From NCBI GenBank assembly GCA_046050965.1, contig JBJOPC010000025.1, forward strand, positions 1 through 35,889: 35,889 nucleotides of DNA, given 5' to 3'. Made by a program: the position numbers and the translations under genes. Shown here piece after piece: positions 2,312 through 35,339 of the stretch. How positions within the stretch are numbered: position 1 is the stretch's first letter; every line of letters starts with the position of its first letter. Origin of the DNA: Verrucomicrobiota bacterium (GTDB lineage Bacteria > Verrucomicrobiota > Verrucomicrobiia > Limisphaerales > JAFMIX01). The notes under the pieces were generated by a model. The model was not told the origin of the DNA, searched no databases, and was given only the letters and a program-made list of their open reading frames with translations.

Positions 2312-4888
2312 ATGAATACCGTTGCCGTCCGATATTTTGCAATGACCACCACCGAAATTCCCTCCCTCCCGCCCGGCGTCAAGCTGACGCGGCTGACCAA
2401 CGGCCTCACCATCATCGTGCGCGAAGATCACAGCGCGCCCGTCGTCAGCGCGCAGGCGTGGTGCGCCACGGGCAGCATTGACGAAGGTAAGTGGCTCGGC
2501 GCAGGTTTGTCGCATGTCTTGGAGCACATGTTGTTCAAAGGCACGAAGACGCGCGGCTCCGGGCGCATTGATCAGGAAGTGCAGGAAGCCGGCGGCTACA
2601 TGAACGCCTACACTTCATTCGACCGCACCGTTTATTACATCAACGTCCCGAACACCGGCGCGCGGGTGGCGATTGATATTCTCGCGGACATCATGCAACA
2701 CGCCGCGCTCCCGCCGGACGAACTCGCCAAGGAACTCGACGTCATCCGCCGCGAGATGGACATGGGGCAGGACGACCCCGGTTCGCGCGCGAGCCGCCGC
2801 CTGTTTGAAGTCGCCTACACGAAAAGTCCGTATCGCTGCACCATCATCGGCTACCTCGACATTTTTAATCAGCTCAAGCCCGCAGACATCCGCGAGTATT
2901 ACGAAGCGCGTTACGCGCCGAACAATATTTTCTTCGTCGTCACCGGCGACGTGAAGGAGGCCGACGTTATCGCGCAGTTGAAAACTGCGTTTGCCGACGC
3001 CAAGGAAAAACCGTTGCCACCCGTCGTGCTGCCGGAAGAACCCAAGCAAGTCGCGCCGCGTGCGGTCATCGAGGAAGCGGCGATTGAACTGGGACATATG
3101 CATTTCAGTTGGCACATCCCCGACGTGCGCCACGCCGACGTGCCGTTGCTCGACGTGCTAGCGGTGTTGCTCGGTAGCGGACGCAGCTCGCGCTTGTTCC
3201 GCGAGGTGCGCGAGAAGCAAGGCGTCGTGCATCATGTGGATGCGTGGACTTACAACCCCGGTCGCCCCGGCGTGTTCGGCATGAGCGCGGTAGTGGACGG
3301 CGAACAATTCTCCGCCGCCCGCGACGCCATGCTCGCGGAAATCGAGCGCATGAAAACCACGTTGGTTTCCGCCGACGAACTCACCAAGGCGATGAAGCAA
3401 TTCATCTCCGGCACGCTTGCGTCGCGCAAGACGATGCAGGGGCAAGCGCAAGACCTCGGCGGCAATTGGCTCGCCGCGAATGACCTCAACTTTTCTGCGC
3501 GCTACCTCGCCGCTGTGCAACGCATCACGTCTGCCGATTTGCAACGCGTCGCTCGCCATTATCTCACGCCGGAAAACCGCACGCTTTACGCGCTCTTGCC
3601 CGAAGGCACGGCGCCCAAGGAAACCACGCACGTCGAAAGCTCTACGGACAACGCCGTGCAGAAATTTACTTTGCCCAACGGTCTGCGTCTGCTCGTGAAG
3701 GAAGACCATCGCCTGCCGTTCGTGGAATTTCGCGCGGTGTTGCGCGGCGGCTTGCTCGCGGAAACAGCGGTGGATAACGGCGTCACCCAACTCATGTCCA
3801 AGATGCTGCTGCAAGGCACGACCACGCGCAGCGCGGAGCAGATTGCCGAAGAGAGCGAGAGCGTGGGCGGCCACCTTGATTCGTTCGGCGGCAACAACAG
3901 CTTTGGCTTGAACGCCGAAGTGATGCGCGAAGATTTTGCGCTCGGCTTGAATCTCGTCGCGGATGTTTTGCTCAACCCAACTTTCCCCGCCGACGCGCTT
4001 GAGCGCGAGCGCGAGATTCAACTTGCCGCCATCAAAGGACGCCGCGACGAATTGTTGCGCCTGTGCGGTCAACTCATGCGTCGCACGTTGTTCGGCGAGC
4101 AAGGTTACGGCCTCGACTCGCTCGGCTCCGAAGCGAGCGTCGACAAACTCTCGACGAGCGACCTAAAAAACTTTCACGCGAAGCTCACCGTGCCGAGCAA
4201 CTGTGTGCTCGCCATCTACGGCGACGTGAAAGCGAGCGAAGTCAAAGCGGCGGTGGAACGCGCGTTTGGGAGATGGGAGATGGGAGATGGGAGATGGTCT
4301 TCCCCCAACTTCCAACTTCCAACTTCCAACTCCCATCTCCCAGCCCGCGTGAGCGAAGTTTGCGACAAGAAACAAGCCGTGCTCGTCGTCGGCTTCACAG
4401 GCACGACCATGTTTGCCGAAGATCGTTACGCGCTGGAGTTGTTGCAGGAAGCGTGCAGTGATTTAGGTTCGCGATTGTTTCTCCGCATCCGCGAGAAACT
4501 CGGCCTCGCCTACTACGTCGGCGCGCAGCAGATGCCCGGCGTGGTTCCCGGCTACTTCGCGTTCTACGCCGGGACGGAGCCGGAGAAAGCGCAACTCGTC
4601 GAAGACGAAATGCTGTCCGAAGCGCGCCAACTCTGCGACGACGGGTTGAGCGACGAAGAATTGAAACGCGCCAAAGCTAAAATCATCGGTCAGAAAAAAA
4701 TTGCGCGCCAAGAACTCGGCGGTCTCGCCATGGCCACCGCGCTCGACGAGCTTTACGGCCTTGGTTATCAACACGCCGCGACCGACGACGCCAAATACGA
4801 AGCCGTCACGCGCGAGCAAGTCCGTGCCGCCGCGCAAAAATACCTGCGCCCCGAAGCCGCCGTCATCGCGTGGGTGCGCCCGACGTGA
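2312..4888 (+). CDS. two-module M16 (pitrilysin/insulinase) family zinc peptidase
   Basis: 858 aa with the HxxEH zinc motif (GLSHVLEHMLFKGT) in the first module and a second, inactive-type M16 module. AAGGAG lies 4 nt upstream of the ATG at 2312; 2342 is an alternative start. Confidence 0.9.
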   Translation: MNTVAVRYFAMTTTEIPSLPPGVKLTRLTNGLTIIVREDHSAPVVSAQAWCATGSIDEGKWLGAGLSHVLEHMLFKGTKTRGSGRIDQEVQEAGGYMNAYTSFDRTVYYINVPNTGARVAIDILADIMQHAALPPDELAKELDVIRREMDMGQDDPGSRASRRLFEVAYTKSPYRCTIIGYLDIFNQLKPADIREYYEARYAPNNIFFVVTGDVKEADVIAQLKTAFADAKEKPLPPVVLPEEPKQVAPRAVIEEAAIELGHMHFSWHIPDVRHADVPLLDVLAVLLGSGRSSRLFREVREKQGVVHHVDAWTYNPGRPGVFGMSAVVDGEQFSAARDAMLAEIERMKTTLVSADELTKAMKQFISGTLASRKTMQGQAQDLGGNWLAANDLNFSARYLAAVQRITSADLQRVARHYLTPENRTLYALLPEGTAPKETTHVESSTDNAVQKFTLPNGLRLLVKEDHRLPFVEFRAVLRGGLLAETAVDNGVTQLMSKMLLQGTTTRSAEQIAEESESVGGHLDSFGGNNSFGLNAEVMREDFALGLNLVADVLLNPTFPADALEREREIQLAAIKGRRDELLRLCGQLMRRTLFGEQGYGLDSLGSEASVDKLSTSDLKNFHAKLTVPSNCVLAIYGDVKASEVKAAVERAFGRWEMGDGRWSSPNFQLPTSNSHLPARVSEVCDKKQAVLVVGFTGTTMFAEDRYALELLQEACSDLGSRLFLRIREKLGLAYYVGAQQMPGVVPGYFAFYAGTEPEKAQLVEDEMLSEARQLCDDGLSDEELKRAKAKIIGQKKIARQELGGLAMATALDELYGLGYQHAATDDAKYEAVTREQVRAAAQKYLRPEAAVIAWVRPT
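4267..4342. repeat. heptamer-built imperfect palindrome inside the M16 peptidase CDS
   Basis: The left arm is (TGGGAGA)x4+TGG at 4267-4297. The loop is TCTTC. The right arm is CCCC(AACTTCC)x3 AACTCCCATCTCCCA at 4303-4342. The outer 12 bp (GGGAGATGGGAG / CTCCCATCTCCC) pair perfectly. It is translated in frame as WEMGDGRWSSPNFQLPTSNSHLP. Confidence 0.85.
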
Positions 4889-4944: not shown

Positions 4945-6366
4945 ATGGCTGTAAAATTCTTCAACTCACTTTCGCGCTCCGTGCAGGAGTTTGCGCCCAT
5001 CCACGGCAACAAGGTCGGAATGTATTGCTGCGGGCCGACGGTCTATGACTTTGCGCACATCGGCAATTGGCGCACGTTTGTCTTCGGCGATCTCGTGCGG
5101 CGTTACTTGGAGTTTCGCGGCTACGCGGTGCAGCACGTCATGAACATCACCGACGTGGAGGACAAAATCATCCGCCGCGTCCGTGAAAATAAAACCACGC
5201 TGCGCGAATTCACCGGCCAATACACCGCCGCGTTCCTCGCCGATCTGCAAGCGCTCGGCTGCCATTTGCCGCACCAGCAACCGCTCGCCACCGATTACAT
5301 CGCCGCGATGATTGAGCTGATCGAGAAACTCATCGCTCGCGGCGTGGCGTATCGTGCGGGCGACGGTTCGGTTTATTTTTCCATCGAGAAATATCGCGGC
5401 TGCGGCTGCCACTACGGCCAGCTCGTGAAACTCAATTTTGAAGAGATGCGCGTGGGCGAACGCGTGAGCAGCGACGAATATGCCAAAGAATCCGTCGCGG
5501 ATTTCGCGCTCTGGAAAGCACGCGTGCTGGACGACGGTGACGTGTTCTGGCCGAGTCCGTGGGGCGAAGGTCGTCCCGGCTGGCACATCGAGTGTTCGGC
5601 GATGAGTTGGAAAATTCTCGGCGGCAGTTTTGATTTGCACCTCGGCGGCGAGGACTTGGCGTTCCCGCATCACGAAGACGAAATCGCGCAGAGCGAAGGC
5701 GCGGGCGTGAACGCGCCCGGCCAGCCGTTCGTGAAATACTGGCTGCACGGCGCGCACTTGCTGGTTGAGGGCAAGAAGATGAGCAAGTCGCTGGGGAATT
5801 ATTTCACGCTGCGTGATTTGGTGGCGAAGGGTTTCACGGGACGCGAGGTGCGGTTTCTTCTGTTGAGCGCGCACTACCGCGAGACGTTTAATTTCACGAT
5901 GGACGGACTTGCGGGCGCGCGCACGGCGTTGGGGCGCATTGACGAATGCGTGGCGAAGTTGCGGGCGTCGGCGAGTCCAAAGTCCGATGTCCAAAGTCCA
6001 AAGTCGGACGACGCGCTCGTCGCGAACATCACTGCCGCGCTCGATGATGATCTGAATATTTCCGGCGCGTGGGCGGTGGTGTTTGACTGGGTGCGCGACA
6101 CGAACAAGCGGCTCGCGGATAATTCCCTCACGCCCACACAAGCGGCAGAAGCACTCTTGGCTTGGGAGCAGGTGAACCTGATTTTCGCTGTCGGAGCCGC
6201 TGCTGCCGCTGAAGCTCCGGCAGAAATCGTGGCGCTCGCCGAAGCGCGCGTGGCCGCCAAGAAAGCCAAGGACTTCAAGCAGGCCGACGCGCTGCGTGAC
6301 GAACTCAAAGCCAAAGGCTGGCTGGTCGAAGACACCGCCAAAGGCCCGAAGCTCAAACGTCTGTAG
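4945..6366 (+). CDS. cysS: cysteine--tRNA ligase
   Basis: 473 aa with CGPTVYDFAHIGN (HIGH-type motif), KMSKS, and the C..C / WHIEC zinc-site context typical of CysRS. Confidence 0.95.
   Translation: MAVKFFNSLSRSVQEFAPIHGNKVGMYCCGPTVYDFAHIGNWRTFVFGDLVRRYLEFRGYAVQHVMNITDVEDKIIRRVRENKTTLREFTGQYTAAFLADLQALGCHLPHQQPLATDYIAAMIELIEKLIARGVAYRAGDGSVYFSIEKYRGCGCHYGQLVKLNFEEMRVGERVSSDEYAKESVADFALWKARVLDDGDVFWPSPWGEGRPGWHIECSAMSWKILGGSFDLHLGGEDLAFPHHEDEIAQSEGAGVNAPGQPFVKYWLHGAHLLVEGKKMSKSLGNYFTLRDLVAKGFTGREVRFLLLSAHYRETFNFTMDGLAGARTALGRIDECVAKLRASASPKSDVQSPKSDDALVANITAALDDDLNISGAWAVVFDWVRDTNKRLADNSLTPTQAAEALLAWEQVNLIFAVGAAAAAEAPAEIVALAEARVAAKKAKDFKQADALRDELKAKGWLVEDTAKGPKLKRL
5975..6009. repeat. 5 x 7-nt tandem tract inside cysS
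   Basis: The tract is GTCCAAA GTCCGAT GTCCAAA GTCCAAA GTCGGAC, translated as SPKSDVQSPKSD. Confidence 0.8.
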
Positions 6367-10218: not shown

Positions 10219-10249
10219 GGAGTTGGAAGTTGGAAGCTGGGAGTTGGGG
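10219..10249. repeat. single-arm copy of the TGGGAGT/TGGAAGT heptamer element
   Basis: GGAGTTGGAAGTTGGAAGCTGGGAGTTGGGG lies immediately upstream of the recO start. I found no inverted partner nearby. Confidence 0.75.
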
Positions 10250-10263
10250 TAGGGCTTCCTAAA

Positions 10264-10326
10264 CTTAATCCTACTCGTAATCCTAATCCGCAAAACCGGC
10301 TGATTACGATTACGAGTAAGATTACG
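10264..10326. repeat. hexamer-built hairpin between the DUF502 gene and recO
   Basis: The left arm CTTAATCCTACTCGTAATCCTAATC (10264-10288) pairs with the right arm GATTACGATTACGAGTAAGATTACG (10302-10326) with about 3 mismatches. The loop is 13 nt. The arms are built from TAATCC/GATTAC-type 6-mers. Confidence 0.8.
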
Positions 10327-10346
10327 TTTATGAACATAGTCGGCGG

Positions 10347-15154: not shown

Positions 15155-18100
15155 TCATTTGGCTTTCAAAATTCGGAACGGTTGCGTCCAGGCGTCGAAG
15201 CGACAGACGCTGGCGTAGTCGCAGAAATCGCAGGCGGTCTCGCTGCCTTTGCGGAAGGGCGTGACGGAAATTTTTCCGGCAAAAATTTCCGTGCCGAACT
15301 GTTTCAAGTTGGCGACAGCGTCGTCGAGCAGCGCGCGGAATTCGGGCGCGGGCAAGCGGTCGTGGCTGGTTTTGCCGGTCTTGAATTGTTCCTTGGTTTC
15401 GGCGGGGTCGAGTTTGGCGAGTTGTGCTTCGTCGTAGCGACCGACGTGCTGAAAACTTTCGCGGACGGTAGTCGCGGCGTGAGTGGCGTCGGTGTCGCGG
15501 GTTTTGCTGGTGGAAAATTCGCCGCGTAAGTTGACGTAGAAAACGCCGGCGGCGGAAATTTTTTCCACGCCGAGCGTGGCGCAGGATTCGGGAATGTTTT
15601 CGAGTGCAGCAAGGTAAGCGGGGAGTTGCAACTGCACTCCGTGAGCGAGCTTGAGTTGGTCAGGTTTGCGCGCGCTAGATTTGTAGTCCACGACGACAGC
15701 GAGCGCGGCACCGGTGGTGGGATCGCGCCATAAATCCACGCGGTCAATGCGTCCGCGCAGCGAAAGTTGGTGCGTGGCGTCGAGCGGAATTGTCCAAGCG
15801 GGCCAAGGAGAATCTTCGGGCAGACCGAAGCCGACTTCGACGAGCGCGGGGTCGAATTGATAGTCGCGCGCCCAGCCGATGAGGACGCCGAGGAGCGTTT
15901 CGAGCGCGGCGAGGAGTGTCTCACCAGCGAAGCGGCTGGCGGCGTCGCGCGTGAATAGGCCGCGCTCGTAGGCGGGCAGGAGTTCGTGGCCGAGGCGACG
16001 CACGCGGGCGCGCGCGGTGTCGGGCGTGAGGTCGCGCCACTTCAAATTTTCGGTGAGCAGTTCGTTGTGGAAAATTTTCAGAAGCTCGTGTTGGAACGAA
16101 CCGCGTTGGCGGGCGTCGAGTTCAAATTCTTTACGCTCTTGCGCGCGGAGGCCGCGACCGACGAAGAACTTAAACGGACACGCGCCGAAATCTTCGAGCG
16201 CGCTGACGGAAGTTTTGAACTCACTGCCGTAGAGCGCGTCGGCGTGGGCGGGCGTGATTAACTGGGGCGCGTGGGCGGCGGCGATTTGCTGCGCGTGAGC
16301 CAGCACGTCGGTGAGTTGGGGCAGTGCGAGCAGTGGAGTTTGCACGCCGCGCGACTGGAGTTGGAGGGCGGCGGGAATGATTTCGTGCGGGTGAACGAGC
16401 GCGTCGAACGGCGCGGGCGCGGGCGCGTCGGTGAGTTTTATTTCAGGGAAAATTTTTTCGAGTTGATCGAAAAAGGGCGAGCGGTTCAGCGCTTTGCCCC
16501 GCGCGTCAGTCTGGGCGCAGGTGAGCACGAGGCGTTCGCTGGCGCGCGTGACGGCGACGTAGCCGAAATATCTTTCGTGACCGAGGCGACGGCGCAAATC
16601 AGGGCTGGGCGCGGCGTGGTGCAAGGAGAGTTCGTCGCGTTCGAGTTCGTTGAGGAGTGAGTTTTCGCGGGGTGGCGCGGGGAAAATGCCTTCGTTCAAG
16701 CCGAGCACGACGGCGAGTTTCAGTTCGGGTGTGCGCGAACGGTCGAGCGCGCCGATGACGACTTGATCCAGCGCGGGTGGGATGACGCCGACGGTCAGCG
16801 TGGCGAGGCCGGACTCAACGATGGGCAGCCAGTCGCGGACGGTGAGTGTGGTGTCGGGGAACGCGCGGGCGAGATTGCCGAGCCATTTTTGGAGCTGTTC
16901 CCAGACGGTGGCGTGGATTGGCGATTGGCAATTGGCAATTGAGGACTGGGGAAATTCTTGTGCGCTCCACGTCTCAAAAGTTTTTTGCACGTCGAGTTCG
17001 TGCCAGAGATTTTGCAGGGCGGTGGCGAGTTGTTCGCCGGTGGCGGCGGTGGCGAGCGTGGTCGAAAAAGTTTTGAACGGCGGAACGATTTGTTGGCGCA
17101 AGTTTTCGGCGGTTGCGGAATCGGCGATGGGGTTCAACCAGAATTTTCCATCCCAGCCGAATTGTAGCGCGGCGTTTTCGAGGGAATCAATTTCCGTTTC
17201 CGCGACGGGGACGAGGCCGGTTTTGAGCGCGCCGAACCAGTCGTCGTGCCGCCAGCCGTAGGCGGCGAGGCGCAGGGCGTAACGCGTGAGTTCGGCGAGC
17301 GGATGGTGGGCGACGGGTTCGCGGCGGTCGAGGTAGCAGGGGATTTCGTAGCGCGCGAACACGCGGCGAAGCGTGTCGGCGTAACCATCGAGCGAGCGGA
17401 CGAGCACGGCAGTTTCGCGGAAACGTCCGCCGCGCTGAACGTGTGCGAGGATTTCGCGCGCGGCGTGGACGGCTTCGGCATCGGGCGTCGAAAGCCGGAA
17501 AAGTTGAAGCGCAGAAGGCGTAGGGCGTGGGGCGTGGGGCGCGGGCTGGCCGCTTGCCCAGCTTTTTTCTAGGTGCGCGAGTGTGGGATTTCTGGCGAAC
17601 CGGGTTGACGGCGCGGTGTTGGACAGAACTTCCGTGATGAGTTGCACGGTGGAAATTTTTTCCAAGCGTTCGCGACAACGGAGAAAAGTCTGGCCGACAA
17701 TCGCCCACGGCGAGAGCCAGCCGGGGTCGGTTTTAATTTCGGCGTCGAGGCAGAACGCGAGCGTTGCGCGCTGGCATTGGGGGACGAGCGCGGCGAGCAG
17801 GTCGAGTTCCTGCGCGGTCATTTCGGCGAAGCCATCGAGCCATAGTTGCGCGAGCGGCATCGTCCACGCGCCGGATTTCAACTGCTCGGCGGCGAGGGTG
17901 ATGAGCGTGGAGGCGTCGTGCAGCGCGTAGTCGGCGAGCCACGTTTGGTAGGCGCGCAGGAGCAGGGCGAAGTCGTGGAGTTTGTCGCGGAGCTGCGACG
18001 GGAGAGTTTTTTTCCCGGCGAGGTCGAAAAGTTTTTGCGGCGAGATTTGCTGGCGTTGAAATTCCTGGAGCAGCGCGCTCAAGCGTTTGGCGAAACCGGG

Positions 18101-26929: not shown

Positions 26930-28642
26930 CTACTTCAACAACGCTTCGGCGTGTTTGCGCGCGGCGTCACTTTGGCCGCCGAGCATTCGCGTGAGTTCGG
27001 CGACGCGAGACTTTTTATCGAGCAAGGTGATTTCCGAAGTCGTCCGTCCGTCGCGCACTTGCTTGGTCACGACGTAGTGCGCGTCGGCGGGCGCGGCGAC
27101 TTGCGGCAGGTGCGTGATGCAAATGACCTGACGTTTCGTCGCAAGCTGCTGCATCTTTTCGCCGACGGCATTGGCGGTTTCGCCGCCGACGTTCGCGTCC
27201 ACCTCATCAAAAACCAGCACGGGAATTTCGTCCTCTGCCGCGAGCACGGTTTTCAACGCCAACATCACGCGCGCCATCTCGCCGCTCGACGCAATCGCGC
27301 GCAGCGGCTTCAACGGCTCGCCGATGTTCGGGGAGAACTGGAATTCAACGGTGTCGAATCCAGAGTTGGAGGCGGAGGAGATGGGAGTTGGAAGTTGGGA
27401 GTTAGGGCTGTTGCTCCCCAACTTCCAACTCCCATCTCCTATCTCCTGTTTGATTTCAAAATGGCTTTGCTTGAAACCCAAATCCGCGAGTTGCAGCGCG
27501 GCGGCTTGGGCGAGTTTGGGAATGACCTTGGCGCGGGCGGCGGAAAGTTTCTTGCCCGCGCTCAACAGTTCGGCGTCGAGTTTTTTTAATGCGAGGTTGA
27601 GGCGCGCGAGTTCGGCGTCGCGGGATTCGAGCGCGCGGAGTTTTTCCTTGGCGTCGTCGCCGAACGCGGTGACTTCGGCTAGCGTCGCGCCGTATTTGCG
27701 CTTGAGTGTGTGGAGCAGATTCAGCCGCTCCTCCAACTCCGCGAGGCGCGCGGGATCCACGTCCACCTTGTCGGCGTAGCGGGAAATTTCCGTCTGCAAC
27801 TCGCGCAAAATTTCCGTGGCCTGCGCGTGCAGTTCGCCCAGCGGCGCCGCGCCCGCGTCCACGCGCTGCAACTCGTGCAAGGTGCGTCCGACCGCGCCGG
27901 CCTGCGTGAGCAACGAGGCGTCGGACTCGCTCAACACGTCGAGCGCGGCTTGGCTCAACTGGAGCAGCTTGGCGGCGTTGCTGGCGCGGCGAAATTCTTG
28001 TTCCACGATTTCGTCCTCGCCGGGTTGCAGGCGCGCGGTGGAAATTTCCTGCACTTGGAAACGCAGCAGATCGAGTTGTTGCGCGTAAGTTTTTTCGTCC
28101 ACGACGAGCGCGGACTTTTCGTTTTCCAACGCAGCGCGGCGGCGGACAAGTTCGCCGAATTCTTCGCGGGCTTTTTCCAACCCGCCGAACTTATCTAAAA
28201 TCAAAAGTTGTTTCGCCGGATGCAGCAGCGACTGATGGTCGTGCGGGCCGTGCATATCCACGAGCGATTCGCCGAGGCTGGCGAGGACGGCGAGCGTGGT
28301 GGCGGAGCCGTTGACGAACTGGCGATTCGTGCCGGCGGCGGTGAAGGTGCGTTTGAGCACCAGTTGATTTTCCTCGCACGGTTCGAGGCCGTTCTCGTCG
28401 AGAAAACTTTTCAACGGCGCGCGCAGTTTCGCCACCTCGAACACCGCCTCGACGCTGCAACTGTCCGCGCCGCTGCGGATAAGGGTGCGGTCGGCGCGTT
28501 GGCCGAGCACGAGGTTGAGCGCGCCGATGATGATGGATTTGCCCGCGCCGGTTTCGCCGGTGATGACGTTGCCGCCGGGCTGGAGTTCCAGCGTGAGGTC
28601 GGCCACGAGGGCGAGGTTTTTGATGCGAAGCGTCGTGAGCAT
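26930..28642 (-). CDS. recN: DNA repair protein RecN
   Basis: The ATG at 28640..28642 gives MLTTLRIKNLALVADL...ITGETGAGKSIIIGAL (Walker A). A long coiled coil follows, then the C-terminal signature ASSGEMARVMLAL and Walker B (VLVFDEVD). Confidence 0.92.
   Translation of the reverse strand: MLTTLRIKNLALVADLTLELQPGGNVITGETGAGKSIIIGALNLVLGQRADRTLIRSGADSCSVEAVFEVAKLRAPLKSFLDENGLEPCEENQLVLKRTFTAAGTNRQFVNGSATTLAVLASLGESLVDMHGPHDHQSLLHPAKQLLILDKFGGLEKAREEFGELVRRRAALENEKSALVVDEKTYAQQLDLLRFQVQEISTARLQPGEDEIVEQEFRRASNAAKLLQLSQAALDVLSESDASLLTQAGAVGRTLHELQRVDAGAAPLGELHAQATEILRELQTEISRYADKVDVDPARLAELEERLNLLHTLKRKYGATLAEVTAFGDDAKEKLRALESRDAELARLNLALKKLDAELLSAGKKLSAARAKVIPKLAQAAALQLADLGFKQSHFEIKQEIGDGSWKLGSNSPNSQLPTPISSASNSGFDTVEFQFSPNIGEPLKPLRAIASSGEMARVMLALKTVLAAEDEIPVLVFDEVDANVGGETANAVGEKMQQLATKRQVICITHLPQVAAPADAHYVVTKQVRDGRTTSEITLLDKKSRVAELTRMLGGQSDAARKHAEALLK
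27377..27446. repeat. strong hairpin element (heptamer family) inside the recN CDS
   Basis: The left arm GGAGATGGGAGTTGGAAGTTGGGAG (27377-27401) pairs with the right arm CTCCCCAACTTCCAACTCCCATCTCC (27414-27439), giving 25 bp with one bulged base. The loop is TTAGGGCTGTTG, and a trailing extra unit TATCTCC follows. It is translated in frame as GDGSWKLGSNSPNSQLPTPISS. Confidence 0.9.
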
Positions 28643-35021: not shown

Positions 35022-35263
35022 AAATCCGTCTCTTCATCAAACCTACCTGTGGCTGGTGTCGGCTCGCGACGGACTGGCTGAACGCGCGCGGCATCCAGTA
35101 TGAATTGATTGACGTGTTCGCCCAGCGCGGCGCGTTGCAGGAGATGGTGAATCTCTCCGGCCAGCAAAAGTCGCCGGTCATCGAAGTGGATGGAAAAGTT
35201 TTGGCGGATTTTGGCCCGGAAGAACTTGAGGCTTTTTGGGAAACGAATTTCAACCACAGATAA
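35018..35263 (+). CDS. glutaredoxin-like small redox protein (CGWC), tandem paralog
   Basis: The ATG at 35018 overlaps the upstream TGA (ATGA). Its 81 aa are about 55-60% identical to the preceding protein. Its last three codons and TAA stop lie inside the downstream repeat's left arm. Confidence 0.75.
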   Translation: MKIRLFIKPTCGWCRLATDWLNARGIQYELIDVFAQRGALQEMVNLSGQQKSPVIEVDGKVLADFGPEELEAFWETNFNHR

Positions 35264-35328
35264 ACACAGATGCACACAGATTCTGAAACCAAATTGGCTT
35301 ATCTGTGTTTATCTGTGTCCATCTGTGG
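35254..35328. repeat. 10-nt-period inverted repeat between the grx-like gene and lipA
   Basis: The left arm is CCACAGATAA ACACAGATGC ACACAGAT (35254-35281) and the loop is 19 nt. The right arm is ATCTGTGTTT ATCTGTGTCC ATCTGTGG (35301-35328). The ATCTGTG/CACAGAT cores pair, while the 3-nt linkers are variable. Confidence 0.85.
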
Positions 35329-35339
35329 TTAATAAAATT

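Follow-up and report, generated by a model that had tools for sequence, protein, structure and literature searches.

A Heptanucleotide-Repeat Hairpin Fills an Interdomain Linker of an M16 Protease in a Freshwater Member of the Limisphaerales

The subject of this report is a 76-nt tract at positions 4267-4342 of a 35,889-nt stretch of DNA, hereafter the window (contig JBJOPC010000025.1 of the Verrucomicrobiota assembly GCA_046050965.1). In this tract an array of TGGGAGA heptamers faces an inverted array of CCAACTT heptamers inside the gene of an M16 zinc protease. The tract is probably one copy of a class of heptamer-repeat DNA found in the order Limisphaerales, which fills a linker of the protease and is tolerated there, with no adaptation of the protein behind it. 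The class itself is a dispersed family of modules of quantised size that reside in permissive loops, turn over rapidly and are homogenised within single arms. The locus taken singly is an ordinary one, while the repeat class is unusual and apparently undescribed.

The source genome (G000) is a metagenome-assembled genome (MAG) from freshwater that falls in Verrucomicrobia subdivision 3 / Limisphaerales; its 384 contigs total 2.94 Mb, with 59% G+C. An earlier reading of the letters and open reading frames (ORFs) of the window, referred to below as the sequence-only reading, had described the tract as a heptamer palindrome inserted in frame in the peptidase.

Sequence, Pairing and Translation of the Tract

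The tract consists of (TGGGAGA)x4.4, a 7-nt spacer and a right arm of CCAACTT-type units (Table 1), in agreement with the sequence-only reading, which had a TGGGAGA array facing an array of AACTTCC type at this place. Tandem Repeats Finder (TRF) detects a period of 7, once as 4.4 copies matching at 100% and once as 5.6 copies matching at 90%. The right arm holds a 32-nt module, (AACT-TCC)x3-AACT-CCC-ATCT, at 4307-4338. The outer stem, TGGGAGATGGGAG against CTCCCATCTCCCA, pairs over 13 bp without mismatch; the perfect outer pairing had been recognised before, with its length put at 12 bp. The inner heptamers, rightly described in the same reading as imperfectly paired, pair at 6 of 7 positions and include G:U pairs and A:A mismatches. 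Folded as RNA, a 101-nt region reaches -58.2 kcal/mol, compared with -31.8 ± 3.5 for shuffled sequences (z = -7.6), and none of 200 shuffles equals this value. No Rfam family reaches its gathering score in the entire window. No flanking direct (target-site) duplication is visible at the 4267/4342 borders, the arms themselves being inverted repeats, and no parent insertion sequence (IS) was identified.

Read in the frame of ORF 2312-4888, the tract yields WEMGDGRWSSPNFQLPTSNSHLP, in the protein contexts FGRWEMGDGRWSSPNFQLPTSNSHLPARV and AFGRWEMGDGRWSSPNFQLPTSNSHLPARV. The left arm codes for G653-R654-W655-EMGDGRW. The TGG at 4274-4276, within the second heptamer unit, is the codon of the invariant Trp655, so that one part of the element is now under protein-level constraint. 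It should be noted that a 7-nt unit is not a multiple of a triplet; the argument, made at the outset, that codon-level duplication is thereby excluded is sound.

The Host Protease and Its Interdomain Linker

The host protein contains two Peptidase_M16 and two Peptidase_M16_C stretches according to Pfam, and the residues of its HxxEH zinc motif (H68, E71 and H72) are invariant in 50 orthologs. An AlphaFold2 (AF2) model with a mean predicted local distance difference test score (pLDDT) of 75 matches 9ldy (a zinc protease of P. gingivalis), PqqL, FusC and IDE in Foldseek, with template-modelling (TM) scores of up to 0.73. Both hallmarks of Peptidase M16 that were looked for, the HxxEH motif and the four-domain clamshell fold, are present.

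In the AF2 model, residues 653-677 form a coil (pLDDT 52-79) flanked by helix 641-652 and strand 678-684, and the counterpart of this linker in the N-terminal module, residues 227-249, is modelled as coil too. The solved single-module homologs 3hdi and 5hxk have a linker of comparable length at the same position. Coil in the model, together with a like linker in solved homologs, indicates that what the element encodes is the linker naturally present between domains 3 and 4. Structure prediction, proposed earlier as a check on whether the segment lies in a surface loop, places it in an interdomain coil linker that is predicted to be exposed. Nothing indicates an enzymatic role for the low-complexity peptide that the repeat encodes.

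The Linker Across Orthologs

Seventy-nine M16 orthologs were compared (WIN denotes the window copy, Lnnn the ortholog loci and Gnnn the genomes). The segment between FGxW and RVxExxDKKQAV is hypervariable among them, whereas W655 is invariant. The tract lies where the sequence-only reading had put it, with conserved blocks of the second M16 module on either side, and the protein-level conservation in distant orthologs that would have spoken against a DNA-level element was not found. Being in frame, variable in protein sequence and a member of a repeat family, the tract is well described as a DNA-level element that the protein tolerates.

Less can be said for the term insertion. Loop length was measured as the F..V window, which in WIN spans 29 aa, about 3 aa above the usual. 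The 52 orthologs whose loop has no evident repeat have a median of 26 aa (range 24-33); the medians are 25 aa in 11 orthologs with a solo heptamer array (24-28), 29 aa in the 4 with a heptamer hairpin (28-29) and 33 aa in the 8 with a GC-rich hairpin resembling repetitive extragenic palindromic (REP) sequences (28-35). With 29 aa in WIN compared with a median of 26, there is no net addition of 23 aa, and therefore the linker has been replaced. Alignment of the orthologs, the means suggested earlier for delimiting an insertion, did delimit the segment and gave no net insertion; the element occupies a native linker instead.

Other lineages carry solo arrays of further units at the M16 linker, namely CAACATC, CAACCTT, CTCAACT, TTTCAGA, GACTTTA and GGAATTC. 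The GC-rich hairpins at this linker (L027:4921-5022, L040:4909-5007, L065:4933-5037, L045 and L004) are unrelated to the heptamers; they have stems of at least 20 bp, e.g., GGCACGGGCGTCCCGCCCGTGC, are translated in frame and add 5-9 aa to the loop. One further ortholog match, L024:3001-5652, has two in-frame stops and exceeds the others in length by approximately 100 nt; an interrupted gene or another insertion is possible.

History of the Element at the M16 Site

A tree was built from the M16 orthologs with the loop columns left out. WIN and L001 are sisters in this tree (support 99), and both have a TGGRAGW/CCAACTY hairpin; the next sister, L002, is repeat-free. Hairpins of the same architecture occur in L049 and L005, each in another clade. 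Hairpins thus occur in three separate clades in all, and either three or more gains or many losses are implied. Among the four hairpin elements identity is 72-75%, while at the third codon positions of the flanks it is just 33-57%. Some very closely related orthologs have wholly different loops (L005 vs L013; L008 vs L014 vs L027).

Within the genus, the element is inherited vertically and each of its arms is remodelled separately. G401 (the genome of L001) has a well-paired hairpin with one compensatory change of TGG/CCA to TAG/CTA. G403 has an identical 4-unit left arm, while its right arm has been homogenised to CGAACTC x5, with loss of pairing. The M16 linker of G404 (the genome of L002) has no repeat. 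The left arm comprises exactly 4 units plus TGG in three species, and in each lineage its unit agrees with the codon used locally for x (TGGGAGA, TGGAAGT, TGGCAGA and TGGAGGA). The left arm of WIN is homogeneous and mismatched to the inner right arm; the arms therefore homogenise separately, and the hairpin is not maintained.

Support from Independent Metagenomes

The tract was checked on Logan unitigs of runs X1, X2 and X3, which belong to three studies; unitigs are assembler products, in which rare length variants would escape. In all three runs both junctions are carried: unitigs that begin in unique sequence on the left extend to 4296, and others run from 4306 on into the right flank. X1 also contains a 65-nt unitig over 4268-4332 with zero mismatches. 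X3 represents a strain variant, with single-nucleotide polymorphisms in the flanks and unchanged arms. The unitigs break inside the repeat because its k-mers occur at other loci too. The comparison of heptamer copy number between strains or reads that had been called for could be made on unitigs, and no indel was seen in them.

An apparent joint that skips 90 nt was considered as a deletion allele and rejected as a cross-match to contig C200. A 29-nt stretch of that contig (C200:1148-1176) matches window 4184-4212, in the M16 gene, at 90% identity, and a CCAACTT array follows approximately 950 nt downstream (C200:2100-2127, region 2097-2129), with no ORF across. The look-alike may be a paralogous M16 gene followed by a downstream module.

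The Repeat Class in the Genome and in the Order

The source genome contains 110 perfect arrays of at least three copies at period 7, compared with 1-25 at each of periods 5, 6 and 8-12. The corresponding numbers are 18 and 0-3 in 611 kb drawn from 80 further genomes of the order. The arrays fall into approximately 40 unit classes when perfect and 80 when detected by TRF. Their size is narrowly distributed: the length of perfect runs peaks at 31-33 nt (40 of 109), with only four runs of 36 nt or more, and TRF array lengths peak at 30-35 nt. The common module measures approximately 32 nt (about 4.5 heptamers) and consists of five 4-nt cores and four 3-nt spacers. Arrays within a family keep both phase and size, as in AACT(CAAAACT)x4, AGTC(CAAAGTC)x4 and AACT(CCCAACT)x4.

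Sequence identity ties the tract to other loci. Identical 28-mers recur at up to 9 loci, and the TGGRAGW family occupies 22 loci in the source genome. The 31-mer of the left arm is virtually identical to a solo array at C291:9779-9809. The 22-mer CCAACTTCCAACTCCCATCTCC of the right arm is found exactly at 27418, 23 kb away, in a second copy of the hairpin (Table 1), referred to as the recN copy; the two hairpins of the window had been assigned to one heptamer-palindrome family from the start, and the shared 22-mer bears this out.

Most arrays (222 of 278) are solo, and the 28 adjacent pairs include 20 inverted and no direct ones. A fixed polarity of the arms was considered and dropped, the A+C-rich arm being second in just 13 of 20 hairpins. 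The CCAACTY unit family was detected in 8 of 401 genomes across the phylum and in two of the four other species of the genus; this rarity implies that unit families are lineage-specific and that CCAACTY marks the class poorly. A reversed control pattern (TCAACC-type units) gave 5-12 hits in several CCAACTY-free relatives of the same order (among G406, G407, G408 and G415), as if every lineage used a set of heptamer units of its own.

Residence in Genes and Turnover in Other Loops

Long ORFs supported by G+C content at third codon positions contain 79 of 102 perfect arrays, which is close to the 77.7% found for random windows; 168 of 261 looser arrays lie within 126 ORFs, and genes also contain 10 of 20 hairpins. 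Among the host genes are those for UvrA, a HemL-type aminotransferase, PrmC, RlmN, CstA, a class I tRNA synthetase domain protein, a GT4 glycosyltransferase and homoserine dehydrogenase (Hom). A heptamer array passes each of the three frames once in 21 nt and so yields one and the same 7-aa cycle whichever frame is read. An A+C-rich sense strand is present in 61 arrays and absent in 18, and the resulting peptides are polar and Pro-rich, e.g., QLPTPNS and SPKSKVQ. Freedom from stops in six frames proved weak as a special property (73% observed, compared with 63.5% for random heptamers of the same base composition).

Three other loops document the turnover of arrays. In HemL, an 11-aa (33-nt) array is present at one site in both G000 (unit AAAGTCC; C47:9406-9439) and G406 (unit GAATTCA; L088). 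Both arrays are followed by the same TCAGAAAAYGCCTAC, whose TCAGAA shares its phase with the G406 unit alone; one array family may have overwritten another at constant length. The site is empty in the congener G402 (L094), while others (including L110 of G401) have fillers of +12 to +48 aa, and this surface loop of HemL is an insertion hot spot. In PrmC, the perfect array of G000 and a decayed copy in G402 can be aligned without a difference in length. In Hom, the loop after GYTIKLLG (L125-L139) contains four different fillers in five congeners; G402 and G404 share an AGTCCAA-type array, perfect in the former and decayed in the latter. The Hom loop measures 14-16 aa in repeat-free relatives, and filled loops are 3-9 aa longer. 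A fixed net insertion size was rejected as a general rule, given that HemL gains exactly 33 nt, PrmC and M16 are not lengthened and Hom gains 3-9 aa.

Discussion

How such modules come to lie in loops can be outlined as follows. Two modules of approximately 32 nt, inverted relative to each other, form the M16 hairpin. Other arrays may serve as donors of modules, which a templated event at the DNA level (ectopic conversion or template switching, for example) would place into or over permissive stretches. Assistance may come from the native FGxWK codons, TTYGGNAAYTGGAAR: they already read TGG-4 nt-TGG and resemble the TGGRAGW unit, which would explain why the same family landed three times at the M16 site. 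Each array would afterwards be homogenised by misaligned pairing within itself (local slippage). Four filters probably account for the persistence of the M16 element: units free of stops in any frame, a total length that keeps the frame, a near-native linker length and one TGG giving Trp655.

A bolder version of this proposal is conceivable, in our opinion, and still rather doubtful: the modules may be a distinct, undescribed type of self-propagating DNA of the Planctomycetes-Verrucomicrobia-Chlamydiae (PVC) bacteria, possibly with a mechanism like that of the heptanucleotide repeats of cyanobacteria. A dedicated process would advance in 7-nt steps to a fixed product of approximately 32 nt; guided by microhomology (e.g., FGxWK), it would put stop-free modules in place of permissive stretches, for the most part at unchanged length, and of older arrays, and would thereby continually reshape surface loops and linkers in a few percent of proteins.

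Several observations weigh against reading the tract as a tolerated copy of a dispersed class. No event of module spread was observed, and the M16 site yielded no pair of empty and filled alleles that were otherwise near-identical. That the left arm falls on the native FGxW codons is also compatible with purely local expansion. The compensatory change in G401 could hint at selection for the hairpin. Length variation at the tract was assessed on unitigs of four runs, in which rare variants would be missed. Finally, surface exposure of the linker, although plausible, is predicted from a medium-confidence model and from alignment to solved homologs.

Local expansion is the least improbable rival. 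A native TGGnnnnTGG in the FGxW codons might have expanded by slippage as an ordinary microsatellite, with the inverted arm made by fold-back and nothing imported. The left arm indeed begins exactly in the FGxW codons, its unit follows each lineage's codon for x, and its complete homogeneity shows that homogenisation within arrays is active. This account nevertheless leaves unexplained why a 22-mer recurs exactly 23 kb away and a virtually identical 31-mer at C291, why identical 28-mers occupy up to 9 loci, why arrays are quantised at approximately 32 nt in fixed phase without a slippage-like tail, and why the same composite architecture is found in three separate clades. Growth with no import is thus unlikely, and copying from other arrays is tentatively favoured for the M16 site.

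Transposition is, in our estimation, improbable. An element of the REP or REPIN (REP doublet forming hairpins) type, or a miniature inverted-repeat transposable element (MITE), would be moved by a transposase such as a REP-associated tyrosine transposase (RAYT) of the Y1, IS200/IS605 type. The genome does encode three Y1_Tnp proteins, the inverted doublets of a short module recall REPINs (PMC3116915), and GC-rich REP-like hairpins lie in the same loop of other orthologs. Yet the flanks of the Y1_Tnp genes are ordinary GC-rich palindromes instead of heptamer arrays, 222 of the 278 arrays are solo, and no combination of terminal inverted repeat and target-site duplication is visible at 4267/4342. 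Moreover, GC-rich hairpins lengthen the loop (median 33 aa) and heptamer arrays do not; this points to a different mode of arrival and makes the REP/RAYT route unlikely. A functional element, i.e., a phase-variation tract that turns the protease off and on, or a messenger RNA (mRNA) hairpin acting as a brake on translation between domains 3 and 4 or as a control of mRNA decay, is very improbable. The hairpin is very stable, and a frameshift would follow if a single 7-nt unit were gained or lost; however, the left arm has exactly 4 units plus TGG in three species, four runs yielded no length variant among their unitigs, and the hairpin is decayed in G403 and absent from G404 and most orthologs. 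It also has no Rfam match. Selection at the mRNA level was rejected because five homologous elements show no consistent advantage in sense-strand stability (sense vs antisense: WIN, -47.8 vs -40.9; G401, -33.0 vs -39.4; L049, -37.3 vs -46.3). The chance that the tract is an artefact of assembly or binning is practically negligible. The source genome is a MAG in 384 fragments and unitig breaks fall within the repeat, but the two junctions as well as the centre are present in independent runs of three studies, MAGs of other groups have homologous elements at the same codon positions, and the ORF is uninterrupted; the artefact that the sequence-only reading had named as a possible refutation was thus sought and not found.

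Two of the three Y1_Tnp genes (IS200/IS605 or RAYT-like; C372:396-734, C168:5764-6099 and C142:2807-3058, L081-L083) are bracketed by short GC-rich palindromes, e.g., CCCGGCGTTGAAACGCCGGG and CCAGACACTGCGTGTCTGG, which form a separate REP-like family. A link between the heptamers and RAYT was rejected on the ground that palindromes of non-heptamer type flank the three genes.

Among known systems, the closest in form are the STRR sequences (for short tandemly repeated repetitive), heptanucleotide repeats of heterocyst-forming cyanobacteria reportedly described by Mazel and colleagues in 1990. Cyanobacterial STRR units include CCCCAGT, TTGGTCA and CAACAGT, and the arrays can be paired in inverted orientation where an essential gene product has a variable, tolerant site. 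The Verrucomicrobial class shares tandem 7-nt units, several unit families, many dispersed copies and an excess of period 7. It differs in phylum and base composition (59% G+C), in its units (TGGGAGA / CCAACTT), in a host that is not a heterocyst-forming cyanobacterium, and in arrays that are quantised at approximately 32 nt and mostly lie inside protein genes, near the random expectation. Simple-sequence contingency loci, such as those of Haemophilus, have phase-variable heptanucleotide tracts. A non-triplet tandem unit inside an ORF, in which a change by one unit shifts the frame, is common to both. In contrast to contingency loci, the present arrays appear fixed at approximately 4.5 units, a number kept across species at the M16 site with no variant alleles seen among unitigs, and they reside in housekeeping enzymes, not in surface antigens.

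In behaviour, the nearest counterparts are the Rickettsia palindromic elements (RPEs; Ogata et al. 2000, reviewed in PMC10969869). The review's account of RPEs presents them as palindromic, located in frame in unrelated housekeeping genes, translated and compatible with the protein fold, and reads them as tolerated selfish DNA. A palindromic repeat translated in frame within unrelated protein genes is likewise found here. However, RPEs measure approximately 150 bp and have a conserved peptide per family, and 7-nt periodicity does not figure in that account of them (PMC10969869). The M16 element is, by description, set apart from them: it is 76 nt long, built of heptamers, replaces a linker where an RPE would bring in an insert the size of a domain, and occurs in another phylum. 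REPs and REPINs, which are moved by RAYT transposases (Bertels and Rainey 2011, PMC3116915), resemble the heptamer class in having a short module, single or as inverted-doublet hairpins, in hundreds of copies, in a genome that encodes Y1 transposases. Unlike the predominantly extragenic REPs, 64-77% of the heptamer arrays and 10 of 20 hairpins are intragenic, and the heptamer modules are internally repetitive, mostly solo and do not flank Y1 genes. The best reading is that the heptamer class is STRR-like in form and RPE-like in its in-frame residence and belongs to neither, as phylum, units, size and architecture differ. No description of heptamer repeats in Verrucomicrobia, Planctomycetes or other PVC bacteria was found in the literature searched.

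Placing the tract in a tolerated repeat class has consequences beyond this protease. A non-triplet DNA repeat emerges as routine building material of loops and linkers, including those of essential enzymes, throughout one bacterial order, and the codon of even an invariant tryptophan can belong to the repeat. Neither simple slippage nor the known mobility of REPs and MITEs would lead one to expect the quantised 32-nt size, the fixed phase and the near-zero avoidance of genes. Quantised size, phase and gene tolerance therefore offer handles on the origin of heptanucleotide repeats, a question open since their discovery in cyanobacteria. On the practical side, such tracts inflate the apparent divergence of loops, break short-read assemblies and are potential hot spots of frameshifts in MAG annotation.

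Other Repeats in the Window

Features of the window are collected in Table 1.

Table 1. Positions of the M16 gene, the parts of the tract and further heptamer repeats in the window
Feature	Position	Strand	Basis or remark
M16 zinc protease (PqqL/IDE-like), intact, 858 aa, four-domain	2312..4888	+	ORF, translation, Pfam
Whole hairpin element, 76 nt	4267..4342	+	codes for nearly all of the linker, from helix 641-652 to strand 678-684
Left arm, (TGGGAGA)x4 + TGG	4267..4297	+	31-nt period-7 array, 100% perfect
Hairpin spacer TCTTCCC	4298..4304	+	sequence, fold
Right arm, CCAACTT x3, CCAACTC, CCATCTC, CCA	4305..4342	+	
Solo 32-nt module, AGTC(CAAAGTC)-type, with one diverged unit; another unit family	5974..6005	+	within a long ORF
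Solo array, TGGRAGW family, GGAGTTGGAAGTTGGAAGCTGGGAGTTGG	10221..10247		
Second TGGRAGW/CCAACTY hairpin copy (recN copy)	27373..27447		fold -58.6 kcal/mol

The solo TGGRAGW array opens a cluster at a gene end (10221-10330), in which it is followed within 100 nt by two inverted hexamer arrays (TCCTAA-like and GATTAC-like). A further unit family is represented by a solo heptamer array, ATTGGCA x3.6, at 16917-16941. At 35255-35331, an inverted pair of arrays with a 10-nt period consists of CACAGATAAA x2.7 and TTATCTGTGT x3.3; paired tandem arrays are therefore not limited to period 7.

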